A DNA stretch of 62,738 nt, counting the filler, from Nanobdellota archaeon (GTDB lineage: Archaea > Nanobdellota > Nanobdellia > Woesearchaeales > CAZZGN01): assembly GCA_051819665.1 (NCBI GenBank). It is 8 parts of 8 records of this genome, joined end to end, with 100 filler letters (N's around TTAATTAATTAA, not from the genome) between each part and the next. Parts side by side here need not be neighbours in the genome. Positions count along the whole stretch, not along the records: positions 33,517 to 41,195 come from JBNJDG010000044.1; 7 more parts are not named here. One strand, given 5' to 3'. Below the pieces are notes generated by a model. The model made no database searches and was not told the origin of the DNA. It saw nothing but the letters and a program-made list of their open reading frames with translations. A program made the translations under genes and the position numbers. Below are positions 33,517-44,168 of this stretch, in pieces. How positions within the stretch are numbered: position 1 is the first letter of the stretch; every line of letters starts with the position of its first letter.

Positions 33517-34176
33517 CAACTGATGACCCATAGATACCTTGAAAAGAACGACAACCACATAATATACAAGAACCAGCCCATAAAGCTTAGCGGACCGGAC
33601 CATACGGAGGAGATGAAAGATAGATTCATAAAAAGGCTTGGAGAGACTGAAGAGAGTAAAGGATTCCTGGATAAATTCAAAGAATACCTGTCTGAAAACA
33701 ACCTGGAATTCAATTTCCTCACCCACAATGATTATTTCGTCAGCAATATAATGAACAGTGAAAACTACAACCGGGGGAAGCTGGAAAGCAGAGCTGTCAT
33801 AATCGACTATGAGAAGGCAGGCATAGGCAATCCTATCAGAGACATAATAACCCTCACCGCAAATCCCTCAATAGAAAAGAGCGGTATAGACACTGAAGAA
33901 GAGACAAAAAAATACATCGATGATTTTACGAAGATGCTCAAGAAAGAGGGTTATCAGAATACAGAGAAACTGAAAGAGCAGCTGTCCTCAAGCATGCAGC
34001 TCGAGATAATGCAGAATGATCTCTGCCAGATAGGCTCTAAGATAAACCAGGGGAAGATGGGAGAGGCAGAATGGTATACGAAAAGGTTCATCCAGCATGC
34101 GCCAGCAGGATTAAAGGACCAGTTCATGAAATACATCAACTCCACTAAACAAGAGAATCTTAAGAGGATCATCTAG
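33517..34176 (+). CDS. APH/choline-kinase-like phosphotransferase, 5'-truncated
   Basis: THNDYFVSNIM (HxDxxxxN) and IIDYEKAGIGNPIRD motifs. Confidence 0.7.
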   Translation, partial: QLMTHRYLEKNDNHIIYKNQPIKLSGPDHTEEMKDRFIKRLGETEESKGFLDKFKEYLSENNLEFNFLTHNDYFVSNIMNSENYNRGKLESRAVIIDYEKAGIGNPIRDIITLTANPSIEKSGIDTEEETKKYIDDFTKMLKKEGYQNTEKLKEQLSSSMQLEIMQNDLCQIGSKINQGKMGEAEWYTKRFIQHAPAGLKDQFMKYINSTKQENLKRII

Positions 34177-34213
34177 GGCAAATTTTTTATAGACCAGCAT
34201 CTGTTTCCGGAAT

Positions 34214-34777
34214 ATGAACTTAGGTATAGACTTTGATGGTGTTATCGCAGATACTGTATCCCTGAAGATAGATTATGTCAAAGAAAGATACGGTAAGAGC
34301 ATATCACCAGAAGATACCGATAAGAAAAAGCTATCAAGTATCATAGGTACTGCAGAATATGAAGAGATGATTGATGATATCTATATTTCTGAGAAGATTA
34401 TGCTCACTGCCCCTGTTGTAAAAAGCGCAGGAGAATCAATAAAAAAACTAAGAGAGAACCACTACATTTTCATCATAACAAACAGGAAAGATCATGAGAT
34501 AAATGTCATGACCAGGTACCTGGAATACAATAATATCTCATACGACAGAATAATAAGCTCTGCAGGGAAGAGCAAAGAGAAAGCATGCATGGAGAACAAC
34601 ATAAGGATTATGCTTGAAGACTCTCCCTACCAGCTTGAGAGGTTCAGTAACAAAGGAACAAGGTTATACCTGCTCCTGAGGCCTTACAATAAAGATATAA
34701 GAACACATGAAAACGTAATAAGGATAGATTCATGGGATGACTTCATCCAAGATGTAATGTCAAAAGGGGACCGTTAA
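34214..34777 (+). CDS. HAD-family 5'(3')-nucleotidase-like protein (NT5C-like)
   Basis: IDFDGVIAD, IITNR, K, MLEDSP, RPYN, IDSW. Confidence 0.85.
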   Translation: MNLGIDFDGVIADTVSLKIDYVKERYGKSISPEDTDKKKLSSIIGTAEYEEMIDDIYISEKIMLTAPVVKSAGESIKKLRENHYIFIITNRKDHEINVMTRYLEYNNISYDRIISSAGKSKEKACMENNIRIMLEDSPYQLERFSNKGTRLYLLLRPYNKDIRTHENVIRIDSWDDFIQDVMSKGDR

Positions 34778-35654
34778 GGTCAAAGACCGCCTGAAGGATA
34801 GAATCCAGTTTCACAAGAATCAAAAGATCCTCACCCTCCTTATTCTTCCGGACATTATTTATCTTCCTACAAAGAGACTTGTATGATTCACCGAACTTCC
34901 TGTACTTCTCAGCTGAAAACGAATAAAACAGCTTTGAAAATTGATCTATAAAATTGATTAGCTTATTAAAGATATCCTGGACATCTTCTGATAACCCAAC
35001 ATCATTCTCAGATATATGCTCTGCCAGGTACTTATACTTATCACCTACATTCTCAAGCTCCTCGACAATAAAATAGAGCATGCTCGTATCCCTCTTCCCC
35101 GAGGAACCGTAAATATTCAGGAGCCTTCTTGCAAAATCGGCAAACTTGTTTATATTTACATCCTTCTTCGCAACAAGCTTCAGGGCTTCGAAATCCCGTT
35201 CTTTGATAGCTTCATAAGCCTCTTTTGCATTCTCCTGTACAAGCCAAAATATCCTTCTTATGCTTGTATCAAGCTCGCCCGGATCTACGTTTGCCATTGA
35301 CCTCAGTACACAATGATGCTTCCCCTTATGTACGAAATCAAGCCCGAAGAAACCCTTGCTGAGCTCCTTCTCTATAAGCGTTGATGTCTTCGGATCATTG
35401 AAAGTAAGCTTGAACTCAGAATAACCTGATTTGTACAAAGCACCTACGACCCTTCCGACCATATTGCCGTATTCAGAGACATCCAGCTCAACTCTTCCCG
35501 ACGTGTTAGTTCCAGTGCTTGATATGACAAGATTCCCGCCTTCTTCATTTAAATCTATCTCATCCCCTTTTGAAAGGCCGTTTTCCTTCACCCACCTGCT
35601 TGGCAGGCTCACAGTCAGTGTTGAAGTACCGACTCGATTGATCTTCCTTTTCAT
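34743..35654 (-). CDS. Phosphate uptake regulator-like protein (AbrB N-domain + PhoU domains)
   Basis: RKINRVGTSTLTVSLPSRWVKENGLSKGDEI; LENVGD PhoU-type motif. Confidence 0.85.
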   Translation of the reverse strand: MKRKINRVGTSTLTVSLPSRWVKENGLSKGDEIDLNEEGGNLVISSTGTNTSGRVELDVSEYGNMVGRVVGALYKSGYSEFKLTFNDPKTSTLIEKELSKGFFGLDFVHKGKHHCVLRSMANVDPGELDTSIRRIFWLVQENAKEAYEAIKERDFEALKLVAKKDVNINKFADFARRLLNIYGSSGKRDTSMLYFIVEELENVGDKYKYLAEHISENDVGLSEDVQDIFNKLINFIDQFSKLFYSFSAEKYRKFGESYKSLCRKINNVRKNKEGEDLLILVKLDSILQAVFDLNGPLLTLHLG

Positions 35655-35696
35655 ATAAATTACTAAGAAACAGTCATATAAATATATTTTGATTTA

Positions 35697-35712
35697 GTAA
35701 TTATATAATTAC
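35697..35712. promoter_or_regulatory. Perfect 16-bp palindrome between divergent regulator genes
   Basis: GTAATTATATAATTAC, followed by AATTATAATT, between two TATA-like boxes. Confidence 0.55.
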
Positions 35713-35767
35713 CTATAATAATTATAATTGAACAAAGTATATATTTTATGCACATAATACGGTTATT

Positions 35768-36211
35768 GTGATACAAATGCAGGAGAAAGACATCCCGATA
35801 ATAAGTCATCTGAGAAAGGATGCAAGAACTCCGCTGACAGAGATCAGCAGAGCCACAAAAATCCCTAAGAGCACGGTCTCCGAAAGGATCAGGACGTATA
35901 ACGAATCAATTTTCCACAAGCACACATCACTACTGAATTTCAAGCACATCGGCTATAATGTAAGGACGAAGATACTGTTCAGTGTTGATAAAGGAAGAGA
36001 AGAGGAATTTCTGGAACACATGAAGGATCACGAGAACACAAACAACATCTACAGGGTAACTAACGGATTTGATTTCCTGATCGATGCAGTATTCAGGAAG
36101 ACTGAAGATCTGTACAGATTTTACGAGGAAGCAGAGGATAAAGGATCGACTGATAGCAAGGAATACTTCGTGTTGCAGGAGATAGCAAGAGAGAAGTTCA
36201 TGGAGAAGTGA
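35768..36211 (+). CDS. Lrp/AsnC family transcriptional regulator
   Basis: LRKDARTPLTEISRATKIPKSTVSERI HTH; RAM-like domain YRVTNGFDFLI. Confidence 0.9.
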   Translation: MIQMQEKDIPIISHLRKDARTPLTEISRATKIPKSTVSERIRTYNESIFHKHTSLLNFKHIGYNVRTKILFSVDKGREEEFLEHMKDHENTNNIYRVTNGFDFLIDAVFRKTEDLYRFYEEAEDKGSTDSKEYFVLQEIAREKFMEK

Positions 36212-36252
36212 ACTGAGACACGATAAAGATAGAATAACTTAGCGGGAGCTAT

Positions 36253-37083
36253 GTGAAGATGGAAAAAACAGGAGGGACGAAATTGGACAATCTAGAAGAT
36301 TTTATCGAAGATATAAGCGAGAGAAAAAACCTAAGCAAAGAAGAATTAAATTATTCACTGGGAATAGCAAAAAAACTTATGGAAAAAAGGACAAAAATTG
36401 TAAATGTCGGAGAGAGAGATTACAATGTAACAAAGACCGCCTTAGGACCTATTAAGAAAGACGATCATAACAATTTCTATCAAATAAATTTTGAGATTGA
36501 TGATATCTGGGAAAAGTACATGGTACTTACAAAATCTGAGCTTGACCCTGAAAACCATTATCTGCCAGCCTATGATAATAAAAAAGACCTTTACCTTAGA
36601 ATAGATTCAGGATGCGAGCCAGGCCAAACATTCCAAGACCAAATGTGTGATTGTTTCGACCAACTACACATGGCAATAGACGGACTCATAAATTCAGAGC
36701 AGGGACTTATAATACATATACCAAAACAAGACGGTAGAGGAAGAGGGACAGACTTTCATCTTGCAACCCTCTACCTTCAGGAAGAACTAAATGTGAACAC
36801 TGTAGAGTCATTCAGTCTCCTTGGCGAGGACTCTAGTGAAGAATCCCTTGATGTAAGAACATATGAAGGAGCAATAGCCACCATGAAATATTTAGGCATT
36901 GATAATAATTTCAATATAAAATTTGGTACAAATAACAAGAAAAAAATAGACCCCTTAGAAAAGGAAGGATATAACATAATAAGAAGCCCAACTGAAATAG
37001 AACCAACAAAATACACAAAACAACATTTACAAGCTAAAAAAGAGCATCTCGGACATTTTCTTGAAAATGAAAACTATAGATAA
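36253..37083 (+). CDS. GTP cyclohydrolase II (RibA)-like protein, divergent
   Basis: LRIDSGC...CDC Zn motif, QDGRGRG, TVES, DVRTY, TNNKKKI, HLQAKKEHLGH. Confidence 0.82.
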   Translation: MKMEKTGGTKLDNLEDFIEDISERKNLSKEELNYSLGIAKKLMEKRTKIVNVGERDYNVTKTALGPIKKDDHNNFYQINFEIDDIWEKYMVLTKSELDPENHYLPAYDNKKDLYLRIDSGCEPGQTFQDQMCDCFDQLHMAIDGLINSEQGLIIHIPKQDGRGRGTDFHLATLYLQEELNVNTVESFSLLGEDSSEESLDVRTYEGAIATMKYLGIDNNFNIKFGTNNKKKIDPLEKEGYNIIRSPTEIEPTKYTKQHLQAKKEHLGHFLENENYR

Positions 37084-37879
37084 ACTCATCAGGCCAAATA
37101 GTGGTGTCTGTATAGGATTAGATCCTGATCCAAAAAAATACCCAGATGAATTCAATCAATACTCGTATGATAAATCTACAAAGATTTTCCTAAAAGAGAT
37201 AATTAATATAACAAAGGAGTTTACAACAGCCTACAAAATACAAAAGGCCTTTTTTGATTTACACAAAGATGGAGATAATCTCATAAAAAAAATCACCAAA
37301 AATATAAGGAAAGAAAATCCAAATGCGACAGTATTTATGGACAGCAAAATTGGTGATATTGGAAACACAATGAAAGCCTATCTAAAGAAACATTTTGAAG
37401 ACTATGATTGTGATGGAACTACTGTAAACCCATATATGGGAGGAGATGTATTCAAGGAATTCAAAAACTATCCCGATAAATCAATCTTATTACTTTCAAG
37501 AACAAGCAATGAATCAGCCTATTCTATACAAGATAAAGTTGTAGAAGGAAAAAGACTATGGGAACATGTGCTTGAAGAAACCATAGAGAAATGGGATAAT
37601 TATGGAAATATAATACCCATACTTTCCCACCATATAAACAACACGAAGATAAGAGAGAAAATAGGAGATAGACCAATCCTTTATGCAGGGATAGGAGCAC
37701 AAGGTGGAGACATAAACAAAGCAAAGAAATTACTCAACTCATACAACAGCGGCATAATTGTGAACTCATCAAGAGGGATATTATACCCCTATGAAAAGAA
37801 TAATATAAATTGGAGGAATAATGTTATTGAAGAAACTGAAAAACTTTACAATATGATCGAGAGTATAAAAAATGAATAG
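37061..37879 (+). CDS. pyrF: Orotidine-5'-phosphate decarboxylase
   Basis: CIGLDPD, AYK, DSKIGDIGNT, TVNPYMG, RTSN, GIGAQGG, VNSSRGI. Confidence 0.92.
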   Translation: MKMKTIDKLIRPNSGVCIGLDPDPKKYPDEFNQYSYDKSTKIFLKEIINITKEFTTAYKIQKAFFDLHKDGDNLIKKITKNIRKENPNATVFMDSKIGDIGNTMKAYLKKHFEDYDCDGTTVNPYMGGDVFKEFKNYPDKSILLLSRTSNESAYSIQDKVVEGKRLWEHVLEETIEKWDNYGNIIPILSHHINNTKIREKIGDRPILYAGIGAQGGDINKAKKLLNSYNSGIIVNSSRGILYPYEKNNINWRNNVIEETEKLYNMIESIKNE

Positions 37880-38441
37880 ATTAGTTGCAATTTTAGGACC
37901 AAGCAAATCAGGAAAATCAACAATAATCAATAACCTCATTGATAAATATCAGAACAGATATGAATATATCAAACCATACACAACAAGAGAATTAAGAGAA
38001 AATGAAACTGACAAAATACACCTGGACACTAAACAATTCCATGAAAAGATGAGAAAAGGAGATATACTTCTCCCGAACCATATATACGAAAACTGGTATG
38101 GGCCACCTATAAAAGAGATGACTAAAGAAACAAAAAAGATCAAACTAATTGACTGGCCCGTCCAGAAACTAGATGATCTTATAAAAGCCATTCCTGAGAC
38201 AGATGTAACAGGCGTTTACATAATGCCGGACAGCATAAATACATTGATGGAAAGACAAAACAAAAGAAATATGAATGAAGAAAGAAAAAATAAAGCAATA
38301 GAAGAAATGAAGGATATATACAATAACAAATACGAAAATATAGATTACATCGTAGAAAACAACAGCACAATAAACAATATCACTTACAGATTAAACAACA
38401 TTATAAGAGGGTATAAAAATGATAACAATAATTTCCAATAA
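37872..38441 (+). CDS. Guanylate kinase-like nucleotide kinase
   Basis: GPSKSGKST P-loop, YTTRELRENE, NWYG, DYIVEN. Confidence 0.85.
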   Translation: MNRLVAILGPSKSGKSTIINNLIDKYQNRYEYIKPYTTRELRENETDKIHLDTKQFHEKMRKGDILLPNHIYENWYGPPIKEMTKETKKIKLIDWPVQKLDDLIKAIPETDVTGVYIMPDSINTLMERQNKRNMNEERKNKAIEEMKDIYNNKYENIDYIVENNSTINNITYRLNNIIRGYKNDNNNFQ

Positions 38442-39039
38442 CTTATCAGAAGCATGGGAGAAAACTTTAATCAAATTATATGAGAATGGTAAAGAGAACA
38501 AAGATATGCTCAGGGATGACACAGCAGTTATAGAGATAAACAACCCGACAGGAGAAAGATTAAATGACAGATTCCCGATGAAAAAAGAGATCATGGAAGA
38601 ATACAATGATTTTATAACCAGAGGAGGGGATAAAGGGAATGTACTCGAAGAACACGCCTTATACCACGAGAGGATATTTGAACACTTCAATGATCAGGCC
38701 GAGTATGTAATAGAAAGATTGAGAGAAGACCCACTCTCAAAAAGAGCACAGGTATCATTCTGGGACCCTGTTAAAGATCAGGAAAAAGATAAAGTCCCAT
38801 GCATACAGATCATCTGGTTCAGGATAATTGATAAGAGACTGGAGATGCATGTACATATGAGAGCCAATGATGCATACAAGAAACTCCTCATGAATCTCAA
38901 TATAGCAACTGAACTCATGATATACATTGCAAAACGGCTTAATGTGAGCATAGGAAAATACATCCACATCGCAGACAGTCTTCACATATACAGGAATGAT
39001 AAAGAGGATATCGAAAGGTTATATTCATGTATAAAATAA
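38419..39039 (+). CDS. Thymidylate synthase-like protein (short archaeal-type)
   Basis: DQAEYVIERL, SKRA, WDP, catalytic PC, MRAND...N, SLHIY. Confidence 0.85.
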   Translation: MITIISNNLSEAWEKTLIKLYENGKENKDMLRDDTAVIEINNPTGERLNDRFPMKKEIMEEYNDFITRGGDKGNVLEEHALYHERIFEHFNDQAEYVIERLREDPLSKRAQVSFWDPVKDQEKDKVPCIQIIWFRIIDKRLEMHVHMRANDAYKKLLMNLNIATELMIYIAKRLNVSIGKYIHIADSLHIYRNDKEDIERLYSCIK

Positions 39040-39332
39040 AAAACGACTCTTACAGACAGAAAAGAGGAGGGAACACCAAAATAATTGACATTTACTGTGC
39101 ACAATGCGATAATAAGTTGCACACATATCAGAAAGATGGCAAAGGTGGATTATTCAGATTATATCTGGACAGGATTCTTGACAAAGAGTTTAAAGAGATA
39201 AAATCAAAAAAAGACATCTCAAATCTGGAATGCAAATGCGGGAATTTAATTGGTGTACCTATGCTACACAAGGATAATAGATTTGCCTACAGACTGATGA
39301 AAGGCACATATTATAAGAAAAACCACAAATGA
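39027..39332 (+). CDS. Small Zn-ribbon hypothetical protein
   Basis: CAQC...YQKDGKGGLFRLYLDRI...CKCGNLIG; overlaps the TS-like stop. Confidence 0.75.
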   Translation: MYKIKNDSYRQKRGGNTKIIDIYCAQCDNKLHTYQKDGKGGLFRLYLDRILDKEFKEIKSKKDISNLECKCGNLIGVPMLHKDNRFAYRLMKGTYYKKNHK

Positions 39333-39333
39333 T

Positions 39334-40023
39334 TCACTTCTTCTTTTCCATCGATTTTATTGCTATAACAGCAATAATAACAAGAGCTATGACGATCCAG
39401 GGCAGTGCATCATTCCTATCTTCATCATTCTCTTGATCCTCAACACTGAGATTGCCTTCAGAGACATTATCCTCTACTGTCTTATTCCTCTCACCATCAT
39501 CCTCATGATCCTTCTCCTCTTCAACTTCACCAGAAAGAACGACTGTCTCAGTCTCGCCGATGAAATCCTCATCAGCCTCATACTTTACCTTCTCTGTCCC
39601 TTCAACAGAAGCGAAGCTCCACATCACGAGAGGATCTTCCTCAATCACCTCAAAATCAGAAGAAGAATTGAGCTCAGAAGCATTATCTAGAAGCTCTTTA
39701 GGTATTGACTCAAAGAGCTCAACATTAACCGCATAACCGGTTATCTCAAAATTCATAAAACCGTTCTCATAATACTTTTCAACAATGAGCTCATTCTCAG
39801 AACGCTCCTCTACATTTTCATACATCCCTTTCAGCTTCTCTATCAATGAAGGGCTCTGGCTGAAACCTGCATCTATAGAAAGATTATCCCTGTCATTAAT
39901 ATTAGCTGATGAAACATTATCAGAACCATTCAGGCCTTTCGTGTACTCAAAATCTCCCTCTCCTTCAGTCACCTGTCCGGCTGCAAGACTCACCAGCAGC
40001 AAAAACATCAGGATGTATCTCAT
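39334..40023 (-). CDS. Acidic exported protein with C-terminal membrane anchor
   Basis: Signal peptide, N-glycosylation sequons, C-terminal TM followed by KKK. Confidence 0.75.
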   Translation of the reverse strand: MRYILMFLLLVSLAAGQVTEGEGDFEYTKGLNGSDNVSSANINDRDNLSIDAGFSQSPSLIEKLKGMYENVEERSENELIVEKYYENGFMNFEITGYAVNVELFESIPKELLDNASELNSSSDFEVIEEDPLVMWSFASVEGTEKVKYEADEDFIGETETVVLSGEVEEEKDHEDDGERNKTVEDNVSEGNLSVEDQENDEDRNDALPWIVIALVIIAVIAIKSMEKKK

Positions 40024-41195
40024 CTTGTCCTCCGTATCTCATAAAAGCTTTCTCTAAGGAAGGCTATCCAGCCGAAAAGATAACTCAACAACAGGATAAC
40101 CATGAAAAGCCCCATGAAGACAGATATATAAATATTACCCAGAGAGAAGAGCGTCTTGACAGAACCAGCATAAGTATTAGCTATGCTAAGAACATACTTG
40201 TAGATATAATAAGTGAAGAAACCGAGTACTATAGCGAAAGATAATTTCGTAAGAAGCCTCTTGAAACGAGGCAGGAGAACATCAACGAGGAAGAACACAA
40301 ATATCCCCAAAGCCAAGGCTCCGAAGTAGGAGTTCAAGGCTATTGTACTATACCCGATGGCAACACCGGTCATTTTTCCGGAGATTATAGAGGAGAAATC
40401 GATGAAGGGAGCAAGAAGGAAAACCACGACAGAACCGAGGAAAAGGGATATTTCCCATCTATAAAGCCTCATGCCCTCTCTCTTATAGACCTTCCACCAT
40501 ATATAGGCAGGACCGAACATCAGGAAGAACAGGGCAACATAGACAAGCACAAAGACGAGGAATACAACAACCTTCTCCAGAACACCAAGCCCTGAAACAA
40601 CAGAAGAGAAAACACTCGAGATATTATCTATCCCTATATATACATTCTCATGGAGGCCGAGAGAGGGGAAGACAAACAATGCAAGATCCGTAAGGAGATG
40701 AAGCACAAGCATACCCGAAAATCCGAGCATGAACCTTCTCCTTGAATGAAAAAGCTCAATGAATTTAGCGTAGAAACCTTCAACATTCTCACCCAGCTTA
40801 TGGATAAAGGAATCAACATTGAAGTTCCTCTTCTTGAAGAAGACATAAACGAAATAAAGGAACGCCAGCACGATCACCGAAGCATCGACTATTATGGCGA
40901 GCCACTCCATCATCAGATTGAAAGCCAGTATGAAGAAAGCCAACAGGACAAAAAAGATAGTGAAGAACCTCTCGATTTTCTTTCTCGCACCGACAGCTCT
41001 ACCCTCCTCATGAAGGACATGTATCACGCTGGGCCTTTTAACATGGAGATGGCCTGTAAGATAGAGGGAAATGAAAAGCAGAGCCAACGTACCGAATATG
41101 AAACCACCTACCTGTATCAACTGAGCATTCTCAAGGATGAAACTATAGACTGGCGCAAAGAAGCCACCGCTAAGTTCCTCAGCTACAAAGACAAG
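40020..41195 (-). CDS. Polytopic membrane protein, 5'-truncated
   Basis: About 10 TM segments; frame remains open to the contig end. Confidence 0.75.
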   Translation of the reverse strand, partial: LVFVAEELSGGFFAPVYSFILENAQLIQVGGFIFGTLALLFISLYLTGHLHVKRPSVIHVLHEEGRAVGARKKIERFFTIFFVLLAFFILAFNLMMEWLAIIVDASVIVLAFLYFVYVFFKKRNFNVDSFIHKLGENVEGFYAKFIELFHSRRRFMLGFSGMLVLHLLTDLALFVFPSLGLHENVYIGIDNISSVFSSVVSGLGVLEKVVVFLVFVLVYVALFFLMFGPAYIWWKVYKREGMRLYRWEISLFLGSVVVFLLAPFIDFSSIISGKMTGVAIGYSTIALNSYFGALALGIFVFFLVDVLLPRFKRLLTKLSFAIVLGFFTYYIYKYVLSIANTYAGSVKTLFSLGNIYISVFMGLFMVILLLSYLFGWIAFLRESFYEIRRTR

Positions 41196-41295: not shown

Positions 41296-42488
41296 AGCCA
41301 TTTCCATATCGGCTTGATTATTGCCTTCCTGCCTTCCGAAGAGATCTCATCCTCCTGTGAATGTGTAAGGATAAGACCTTTATCAAGCCCGTGAGAATCC
41401 ATCGCCTCATAAAGGCCCGAAAGTTCCCTGTCCTTGTTATCAGAATCCAGCTTATGGCAGACCTGAACTGCTTCAACGACCTTATCCTTTTCCCTCACCA
41501 AAAAATCACATTCATGGTTGTTCTTATGATAATAGATCTCTTTATCCCTCCTTTTCAGCTCGATGAAGACAGTATTCTCAAGAAGCCTCCCCATGTTCTC
41601 TGAAAAAGAGAAGGAATTTTCCCTTATTATCGCATTATCTATACAGTATATCTTCTTCGGGTTGATCATCTGCTTCTTCAGGGAATGATCATATTTTTTC
41701 AGTGTGAAAAGAAGATACGCCTGCTCAAAAGCCTCTATAAATTGTATAACAGTGTTTGTCGAACCTACACCTATGATCTTCCTTAGCTTATTATAAGAGA
41801 TCTCTTTCCCTATATTCGAGAGGAGATAATGCATCAGAGTCTTTACAGCACTCTCACCCCTTATATCATTCCTCAGAAGCACATCCCTGTAGAATACATC
41901 ATAGAAAAGATTCCTCAGTATATCAACATCCCCCTGCTTCAGGTACTCAGGAAAGCCGCCCTGCTTAAGGTATTCATCAAAAGCTTTTGGCCCTGCTTTC
42001 TTACGCCTGAGTCTCAGGGACTCATTGAATGAGAAAGGATAAAGCTCATGTGTGATCTGCCTTCCGGTAAGCCTTGAACCAAGCTCCCTGCTGAGCATAT
42101 TAGCATTCGATCCTGTCACTATTACCTTCTCTCCGTTATCCACGAGCTGACGGACATATCTTTCCCAGCCCTCTACATTCTGGATCTCATCAAAAATATA
42201 TATCCCTTTAGGACCTAATCTTCTCCTGAACATATCCTCTGCCTTATTGAAGTCCTTAAGCTCAAAATCTGAAAGGCTTATGTCCTCAAACTGCAGATAA
42301 TATACAGGCCTCCTCCCCTTAATAAACTGTCTTGCAAGGGTGGATTTCCCGCATCTCCGAATACCGGATATTATGGATGCGAATCCAGGAAGGATCTTAA
42401 GGCCGGTATCACGCCTCACTCCTGTATCCTTTTTCAGATCTTCCTGTTGCTTCAGGATCACCCTCTCCAGTTCTTCATTGAGCATCAT
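41296..42488 (-). CDS. AAA+ ATPase with DUF4143/PD-(D/E)XK C-terminus, last codons missing
   Basis: GIRRCGKST, IFDEIQ, VTGSN, LTGR, GGFPE, KKIYCID, ENTVF, ECDF. Confidence 0.92.
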
Positions 42489-42617
42489 TGTAATAAGTGT
42501 GCACTACGAATATATAAAAGTTTGCATTAGCAATGCACAGATTTTTGAAATGACCAAAGAGCATGATAACGATCCTGAACAGAGATTTTATCCAGAGTTA
42601 CCCATAACATTTATATA
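42437..42617 (+). repeat. About 181-bp direct repeat, copy 1 (ATPase 5' end plus divergent promoters)
   Basis: Near-identical to 43987..44168. Confidence 0.92.
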
Positions 42618-43986: not shown

Positions 43987-44168
43987 GATCTTCCTGTTGC
44001 TTCAAAATCACCCTCTCCAGTTCTTCATTGAGCATCATTGTAATAAGTGTGCACTGCGAATATGTAAAAGTTTGCATTAGCAATGAACAGATTTTTGAAA
44101 AAGAACAAAGAGCATGATAACAATCCTGAACAGAAATTTTATCCAGAGTTACCCATAATATTTATATA
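43987..44168 (+). repeat. About 182-bp direct repeat, copy 2 (decayed ATPase 5' end and promoter)
   Basis: Copy of 42437..42617 with substitutions in the TATA box and operator palindrome. Confidence 0.92.

Follow-up and report, generated by a model that had tools for sequence, protein, structure and literature searches.

The DNA considered here is a 62,738-nucleotide stretch of a Nanobdellota archaeon (assembly GCA_051819665.1), referred to below as the window, and our subject is an operon of five small genes at its positions 36253-39332. The window consists of 8 contigs joined by N spacers, with the operon on contig C44 (JBNJDG010000044.1; window 33517-41195, 7679 bp), and because the contigs are concatenated the operon has only ~2.7 kb of true context on its upstream side and ~1.9 kb on its downstream side. 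The five open reading frames (ORFs) are all on the + strand, each running into the next, with overlaps of 11, 8, 23 and 13 bp if ATG 37073 is taken as the start of PyrF:

36253..37083, + strand: zinc enzyme with a RibA fold (276 aa), from a long subfamily of its own that has a helical N-terminal extension of ~50 residues (Pfam GTP_cyclohydro2)
37073..37879, + strand: orotidine monophosphate (OMP) decarboxylase paralogue, PyrF subfamily 2 (Pfam OMPdecase; alternative start TTG 37061)
37872..38441, + strand: guanylate-kinase-fold (GMK-like) protein (Pfam Guanylate_kin)
38419..39039, + strand: thymidylate-synthase-like (TS-like) protein, an optional member from a distinct 206-214 aa subfamily (Pfam Thymidylat_synt)
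39027..39332, + strand: small four-cysteine zinc protein with a predicted beta-tent fold, a core partner of the RibA-like protein but also found alone (no Pfam family)

An earlier note on this DNA had described five overlapping A/T-rich genes, and the coordinates, strand, Pfam labels, GC content and GC content at third codon positions (GC3) all agree with that description. The GC content of the operon is 0.337, compared with 0.432 +/- 0.023 for the genome (1.12 Mb, 96% complete, 4.45% contaminated), and 5 of 1878 overlapping 3080-bp intervals of the host genome are equally low. Ranked by GC3 among 918 long ORFs, the genes fall in order at 1.3%, 0.8%, 2.2%, 9% and 6%, with the TS-like gene (GC3 0.41) above the others, and the lrp gene upstream ranks at a host-like 78%. 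The absence of rib or other pyr genes next to the operon, also remarked upon in that note, is confirmed. In one salt-lake study, contigs from four RNA runs match stretches of the operon and of its flanks alike, which is no proof of transcription.

These genes form a real, undescribed gene set. No literature description of it was found in the full texts searched. Of 524 candidate relatives of the RibA-like protein, 27 were full-family members (38-58% identity), and a further search gave 129 representatives at E < 1e-30; locus scans took in the best 80 of 88 genome loci, the best 80 of 185 metagenome loci and 2 viral loci, and these 162 loci were reduced to 121 at 90% identity and then to 69 with enough flank. 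The set recurs mostly in Patescibacteria and DPANN archaea (Micrarchaeota and Nanoarchaeota among them) with scattered other bins, and the RibA-like gene is present in the two viral contigs. Its partners across the 69 loci are the zinc protein (63), PyrF (49), the GMK-like protein (49), the TS-like protein (14, leaving out the TS gene of L125, which is of another family) and a relative of CMP kinase (CMK-like, 10). Five loci have none of these partners, and in 2 of those 5 the next gene after the RibA-like one encodes a different PyrF. Fusions join the RibA-like protein, PyrF, the kinase and the zinc protein, all four: amongst 30 longer homologues scanned there were RibA-PyrF (6) and RibA-PyrF-kinase (1) forms, and we also found zinc-RibA (P0035, P0042, P0050, P0084, P0095) and kinase-zinc (P0180) proteins. 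In Saccharibacteria, L078 (5356-6567) and related loci carry a conserved extension of ~200 residues with no Pfam family on the RibA-like protein, and L088 has something similar.

The set is rare close to home. The long RibA form was in no other of 61 genomes of relatives, and amongst genomes of host relatives the zinc protein was clear in 3/301 and the TS subfamily in 1/301. The suggestion that the operon was horizontally acquired and is not housekeeping is therefore upheld by this rarity, by the retention and fusion of the genes elsewhere and by the separate host copies considered below. In a RibA-like tree, which is a quick, midpoint-rooted IQ-TREE fallback with long branches meeting, four loci form a group with the window copy (98% support in the SH-aLRT branch test), and two of the four share with it the phoU-type regulator neighbour. 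None of the four has a TS gene of the window type and, given this and the higher GC3 of the TS-like gene, TS probably joined the window cassette separately.

The looser attachment of TS is seen more widely. Since TS is optional (14/69 loci) and also free-standing, a fixed five-step pathway is not supported. The 47 loci with both PyrF and kinase include 14 with TS and 19 with a second zinc gene but 0 with both (Fisher p 1.8e-4, inflated because the loci are related and not independent). The TS subfamily occurred in 2/401 and 7/401 genomes of class-wide samples; six copies newly examined included 1 in a cassette, 1 abutting a different tyrosine-less RibA and 4 without a nearby cassette gene, and the idea that TS is a dedicated cassette member is weakened by those 4/6. 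At L199 (3620-4725), where the contig ends upstream, a gene of the TS subfamily overlaps a RibA-like gene of another kind, in which the equivalent of E. coli RibA Glu92 is kept and that of Tyr105 is lost. The zinc gene likewise stands alone at other loci.

What surrounds the cassette is varied. Of 177 flank proteins, 117 were compared with NCBIfam and 30 could be named at 1e-25, nearly all of them different and mostly housekeeping; no recurring effector, polymerase or transferase was found among the cassette neighbours. An NTPase_1 gene lies within 4.2 kb in 10/69 loci; P0192 is a fusion of NTPase_1 with the zinc protein, and in L196 an NTPase_1 gene adjoins a lone TS-like gene. A Maf gene is near 4 loci. 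A membrane-anchored protein of 225-291 aa with no Pfam family follows the cassette at 7 loci (L044, L065, L130, L133, L148, L165, L168). On a phage contig (L171:2370-7814), RibA-like, zinc, CMK-like and RlaP-type nucleotidyltransferase genes separate the N-terminal from the C-terminal half of an apparently SNF2-type helicase gene, as labelled from its sequence.

Four of the cassette proteins are re-tooled relatives of textbook nucleotide enzymes, as their residue changes show. In the RibA-like protein the zinc cysteines Cys121, Cys132 and Cys134 are invariant (95/95), as are Gln137, Arg202 and Lys231, and Asp200 (93/95) and Thr183 (91/95) are nearly so; Arg202 and Asp200 are the retained Arg128/Asp126 pair of E. 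coli RibA. The position of E. coli RibA Tyr105 (173 here) is Leu in 81 and Tyr in 0 of the 95 sequences, that of Glu92 (160) is Asp in 92 and Glu in 3, that of His51 is Asp in 93 and that of Glu53 is Gly in 94. Zinc in RibA serves ring opening, and we take Tyr105 to act in formate release, Glu92 in guanine contact and the Arg128/Asp126 pair in pyrophosphate release. The protein fails the NCBIfam RibA cut-off (79.6 vs 148 bits). Its model (predicted local distance difference test score, pLDDT, 94) matches E. coli RibA (Z 18.6, root-mean-square deviation (rmsd) 2.4, 172 residues) and ties with UTP cyclohydrolase (Z 18.5, rmsd 7.8, 240 residues including the N-terminal extension).

PyrF is the sole cassette protein above a curated NCBIfam cut-off (TIGR02127, 155.9 vs 110.6 bits). 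Its catalytic Lys/Asp tetrad and uracil-reading Ser/Gln are intact, with Lys55, Lys92, Ser145, Gln210 and Arg234 in all 52 sequences compared, Asp90 in 51 and Asp95 in 48. Ala205, before the phosphate-gripper Gln loop, is found in 52/52, where 4 PDB alignments of solved relatives have Pro.

Across 61 GMK-like sequences the P-loop Lys15 and the NMP-phosphate arginines Arg39 and Arg42 are invariant and Tyr76 is kept in 60, with Lys at a phosphate-binding Tyr. The acidic guanine-side residues, presumably the guanine contacts of guanylate kinase, are replaced (mostly by Val/Ala at position 67 and by Pro in 61/61 at position 96), and the protein fails the curated guanylate kinase family (70.6 vs 160 bits). 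The hinge serine position is occupied by Pro35 in 59/61, aligned with the engineered Pro of 4F4J; Anderson et al. (2016, PMC4718807) report that this Ser-to-Pro change virtually abolishes the GMP kinase activity of guanylate kinase by impeding its closure. We considered PhnN as an identity for this kinase and set it aside because its score was much weaker than that of GMK, and the invariant Asn69 was dropped as a uracil clue since it aligns two residues beyond the guanine-side Glu. The CMK-like protein replaces PyrF and the kinase together in its 10 loci, never occurring alongside them, and this swap is found at four separate places of the RibA-like tree. All 14 CMK-like sequences have lost Ser36, Arg110 and Asp132 (Asn being at the Asp132 position in 10, and the Arg110 column being the least certain of the alignment) and have kept Arg41, Arg131 and Arg188; Ser36, Arg110 and Asp132 are given as cytosine contacts of CMP kinase in PMC3603445. 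The swap and these losses indicate that two unrelated kinase folds were recruited, with the canonical base contacts lost in both.

The TS-like protein keeps Cys128, Asp151 and Asn159, equivalent to the catalytic Cys, Asp169 and Asn177 of ThyA, and fails the curated ThyA family (124.9 vs 174.55 bits). Amongst the best 120 of its 351 homologues, Asn159 is kept in 119; it aligns with an Asp of MilA, and we take Asn here to denote uracil-type and Asp cytosine-type base reading. Lys155, at the position of ThyA Gly173, is also Lys in 119/120, which makes the C1 transfer attributed to this protein doubtful. Two of the phosphate-binding arginines are missing from 115/120, and the full window pattern is present in 4/120 only. 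Directly aligned, Lys108 and Ala149 correspond to MilA Lys133 and Ala176, where ThyA has the deoxyribose-type pair Arg126 and Ser167, and Zhao et al. (2016, PMC5175136) showed that the MilA pair sets ribose preference. No loci of this subfamily were found in IMG/VR.

The zinc protein would add a fifth component with a beta-tent fold. This is predicted from a model (pLDDT 92) whose matches are weak but consistent: the best reaches Z 5.1 (rmsd 3.7, 72 aligned; Foldseek E > 0.05), and beta-tent proteins fill the first 4 VIA rows and most of the first 24. The protein falls in an unnamed Atlas cluster of 5975 members (score 0.95), and searches gave no match in the phage collection and 4 weak plasmid matches. 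In P0185, P0190, P0193 and P0194 the zinc domain ends long low-complexity N-terminal extensions; several long zinc-protein fusions look like read-through artefacts.

The host genome carries canonical thyA beside folA on contig C7, with two further unrelated TS-like genes elsewhere, a second pyrF beside the dihydroorotate dehydrogenase gene on C8 (a pyrD-pyrF cluster), an archaeal PyrH on C9, and Lrp paralogues; together with the genome size, the last two suggest a DPANN archaeon. The cassette PyrF and TS-like protein are thus not sole housekeeping copies, given the separate pyrF, thyA-folA and pyrH. The expectation of separate copies holds for pyrF and thyA and not for the RibA-like and GMK-like genes, which are the only Pfam matches of their families in the genome; four archaeal control genomes had no GMK either. 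ThyX and lumazine synthase were not found in the host genome, at 96% completeness. Host contig C3 encodes a 503-aa fusion of MtrA-like, TS-like (with an intact Cys) and pterin-binding DUF4346 domains (L174:5269-6777), and contig C15 has a TS-like gene with Ser for the catalytic Cys directly after a 508-aa gene without a Pfam family (L175:978-3139); a TS gene similar to the C15 copy, at L125 (2310-2963), has Gly for the Cys.

We also surveyed the hosts of 50 of the 80 genome loci, a chosen set made up entirely of incomplete bins. A second PyrF above the cut-off was present in 21 of the 43 hosts with a cassette PyrF, and dihydroorotate dehydrogenase had no match in 17/43 and weak matches only in 6, which together imply that the cassette PyrF does not track de novo synthesis. 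A separate, stronger GMK match was found in 17/43 hosts and lumazine synthase in 17/50. The idea that the cassette kinase replaces PyrH proved uninformative (bacterial-type PyrH in 17/50 hosts vs 22/201 of a background from one class, and the host genome has PyrH).

The hub metabolite of the cassette is, from its residues, most likely a uridine-type ribonucleotide. A uracil-type ribonucleotide substrate is indicated because PyrF keeps Ser145/Gln210 throughout (52/52), the TS-like protein combines Asn159 with the MilA-type ribose signature, and the CMK-like protein has lost its cytosine contacts. The reading that we tentatively prefer, with less than even confidence, is that this horizontally spread cassette serves nucleotide-scavenging microbes in the clean-up and recycling of uridine-type ribonucleotides that are non-standard. 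We favour clean-up because the enzymes are interchangeable and partly free-standing, NTPase_1 and Maf are among the neighbours, there is no downstream consumer and the hosts scavenge. In such a scheme the RibA-like enzyme, partnered by the zinc protein, would take a damaged or modified pyrimidine ribonucleoside triphosphate; zinc-bound water would attack the ring carbon beside the glycosidic nitrogen, and pyrophosphate would be released to leave a monophosphate. The PyrF paralogue would then remove a C6 carboxyl to yield uridine monophosphate (UMP), on which the TS cysteine, where TS is present, may also converge by acting at C5. Finally, the re-tooled kinase might return the monophosphate to the diphosphate pool. 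Of the branches of the earlier idea, salvage or repair is thus the best fit, and DNA modification is not supported.

A number of points weigh against recycling. No known substrate calls for ring chemistry combined with C6 decarboxylation and C5 chemistry, and the fusion of RibA-like protein, PyrF and kinase in a pathway-like order fits synthesis equally well. The zinc cysteines, invariant in 95/95, are more than a plain pyrophosphatase should need. As the hinge proline kills guanylate kinase catalysis, the proposed kinase step may be wrong and a bulkier acceptor is possible, and the host genome already has PyrH. One phage lineage has the CMK-type cassette beside a nucleotidyltransferase, the Maf and NTPase neighbours are few and come partly from related genomes, and genes missing from the hosts are weak evidence because the genomes are incomplete bins.

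The main rival, which we judge rather unlikely, is that the cassette makes a non-standard uridine-derived nucleotide, which would serve as a signal, an antagonist or an antiviral analogue. In this scheme PyrF would give UMP, the TS-like protein may decorate C5, the kinase would activate the product and the RibA-like enzyme would open or rearrange the ring; the beta-tent protein would be a sensor or a subunit. Viperin paired with a kinase is a precedent for such logic, and the fusions, the patchy spread and the loss of canonical base contacts from both partner kinases are all consistent with it, as are the phage cassette beside an RlaP-type nucleotidyltransferase and the predicted resemblance of the zinc protein to the RIG-I/MDA5 C-terminal fold. 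Against this, and against the defence role that had been floated, PADLOC 2.0 returned 0 families for four of the proteins, generic P-loop matches only for the kinase, and no system-level match, whilst among 150 flank proteins scanned 10 matched at 1e-10, several of them generic helicases or ATPases, with no control set. Contextual support for defence is therefore slight; moreover, no effector, polymerase or transferase recurs, and the TS-like and zinc genes also stand alone. A bolder reading invokes a new pyrimidine ring chemistry, in which a tyrosine-less RibA with a beta-tent zinc subunit would make a new nucleotide (an antiviral analogue or signal) from a uridine-type triphosphate, or in which OMP or UMP would be built from a scavenged precursor without dihydroorotate dehydrogenase; it would bring with it a prokaryotic guanylate kinase fold that gained the MAGUK-type hinge proline independently, and a TS fold working without folate. 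We regard this as possible, if somewhat unlikely.

The remaining explanations attract less of our confidence. PyrF and the kinase could supply UTP for destruction of its uracil ring by a UTP cyclohydrolase of independent origin, in the manner of URC catabolism, where URC1 with URC6 degrades uracil to ribosylurea and 3-hydroxypropionate. The structural match to 7EEV/7EJ3, N-terminal elements included, speaks for this, but the UrcA profile matches far more weakly than RibA (E 6e-4 vs 1e-27 to 1e-30), the Tyr, Glu and His lost here are still present in UrcA, and no URC4 or uracil phosphoribosyltransferase candidate was among the recurring neighbour clusters, no genome-wide search having been made. 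Destruction of UTP would presumably also be costly for nucleotide-poor symbionts, and we think this reading improbable. Since a TS homologue beside a nucleoside monophosphate (NMP) kinase fold is typical of phage modified-base systems, and PHROG matches include thymidylate synthase and guanylate kinase families, a pathway supplying an altered deoxynucleoside triphosphate for DNA also deserves mention. It is very unlikely: the window TS has a ribose-type signature and most of its homologues are without two of the phosphate-binding arginines, the subfamily was not found in IMG/VR, the only viral contigs with the RibA-like gene are 2 near-identical ones that lack TS, few loci have TS at all, and no DNA-acting partner recurs. 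Least credible is that ordinary ribA, pyrF, gmk and thyA lie together by chance. The cassette does abut pyr genes in L048, L049 and L079, PyrF passes its family cut-off and the RibA-like and GMK-like genes have no other family member in the host; however, gene order and fusions are conserved across phyla, the host has its own pyrD-pyrF cluster, thyA-folA and pyrH, lumazine synthase was found neither in the host genome nor in most hosts surveyed, and family-defining residues are lost. Other readings, among them one in which the kinase acts as a scaffold, share a small remaining part of the probability.

The cassette bears on how Patescibacteria and DPANN archaea, which rely largely on scavenged nucleotides, deal with those that are modified or damaged. 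Its five proteins are small and expressible, and sharp predictions can be made for them, including a RibA fold acting on pyrimidine ribonucleotides and a TS fold that may be folate-free. Its kinase is a natural prokaryotic case of the guanylate kinase hinge switch known from animal scaffolds, two NMP kinases have been re-tooled independently, and a large unannotated zinc family has come to light. The cassette is also a warning that annotations of ribA, gmk, cmk and thyA in Patescibacteria and DPANN genomes overstate metabolic capacity.

Upstream of the cassette, window positions 33523-34777 hold an EcKL-like kinase gene, cut by the contig start, and an NT5C-type 5'-nucleotidase gene, a pair not seen beside the cassette at other loci. 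AbrB/PhoU-type and Lrp regulator genes of host-like GC3 follow (34743-36211); both neighbours are common to L013, and the PhoU-type gene alone to L109. On contig C46, a 182-bp inverted repeat (window 42437-42617 and 43987-44168, 94% identical) lies around small toxin-antitoxin-like gene pairs.

Compared with known systems, the RibA-like, GMK-like and TS-like proteins resemble RibA, GMK, ThyA and MilA in fold and fall outside these families on defining residues. The RibA-like protein resembles RibA/GTP cyclohydrolase II (2BZ0, 4RL4, 4I14) in fold, zinc triad and the equivalents of Gln70, Thr114, Asp126, Arg128 and Lys154, but differs in having Leu at Tyr105, Asp at Glu92, Asp at His51 and Gly at Glu53, an N-terminal extension, no riboflavin context and sub-cut-off NCBIfam scores. 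UTP cyclohydrolase UrcA/URC1 (7EEV, 7EJ3) has a RibA fold tied to pyrimidine nucleotides, and its structural alignment, which scores no better than that of RibA, runs into the N-terminal helices; the window protein is, however, shorter (276 vs ~423 aa), shares 13-14% identity, has other active-site residues and is partnered by PyrF, a kinase and the zinc protein. With the CMP 5-hydroxymethylase MilA of mildiomycin biosynthesis (5B6D, 5JNH), the TS-like protein shares its fold and the Lys and Ala at the ribose-preference positions, but it has Asn for the MilA Asp, Lys at Gly173 and no MilB or antibiotic cluster, and most of its homologues are also without phosphate arginines. The zinc protein has a four-cysteine zinc site and, by a weak match, the predicted topology of beta-tent domains (MsrB, Yippee/Mis18, cereblon, RIG-I C-terminal domain), unlike which it belongs to no Pfam family and has a group of invariant residues (Tyr, Gln, Lys, Asp and Arg) of its own. 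The kinase, lastly, shares its fold and phosphate arginines with the Ser-to-Pro variant of guanylate kinase (4F4J) and with MAGUK-type domains and has the hinge proline natively, but unlike the latter it is prokaryotic and operonic, with an intact P-loop and lid arginines.

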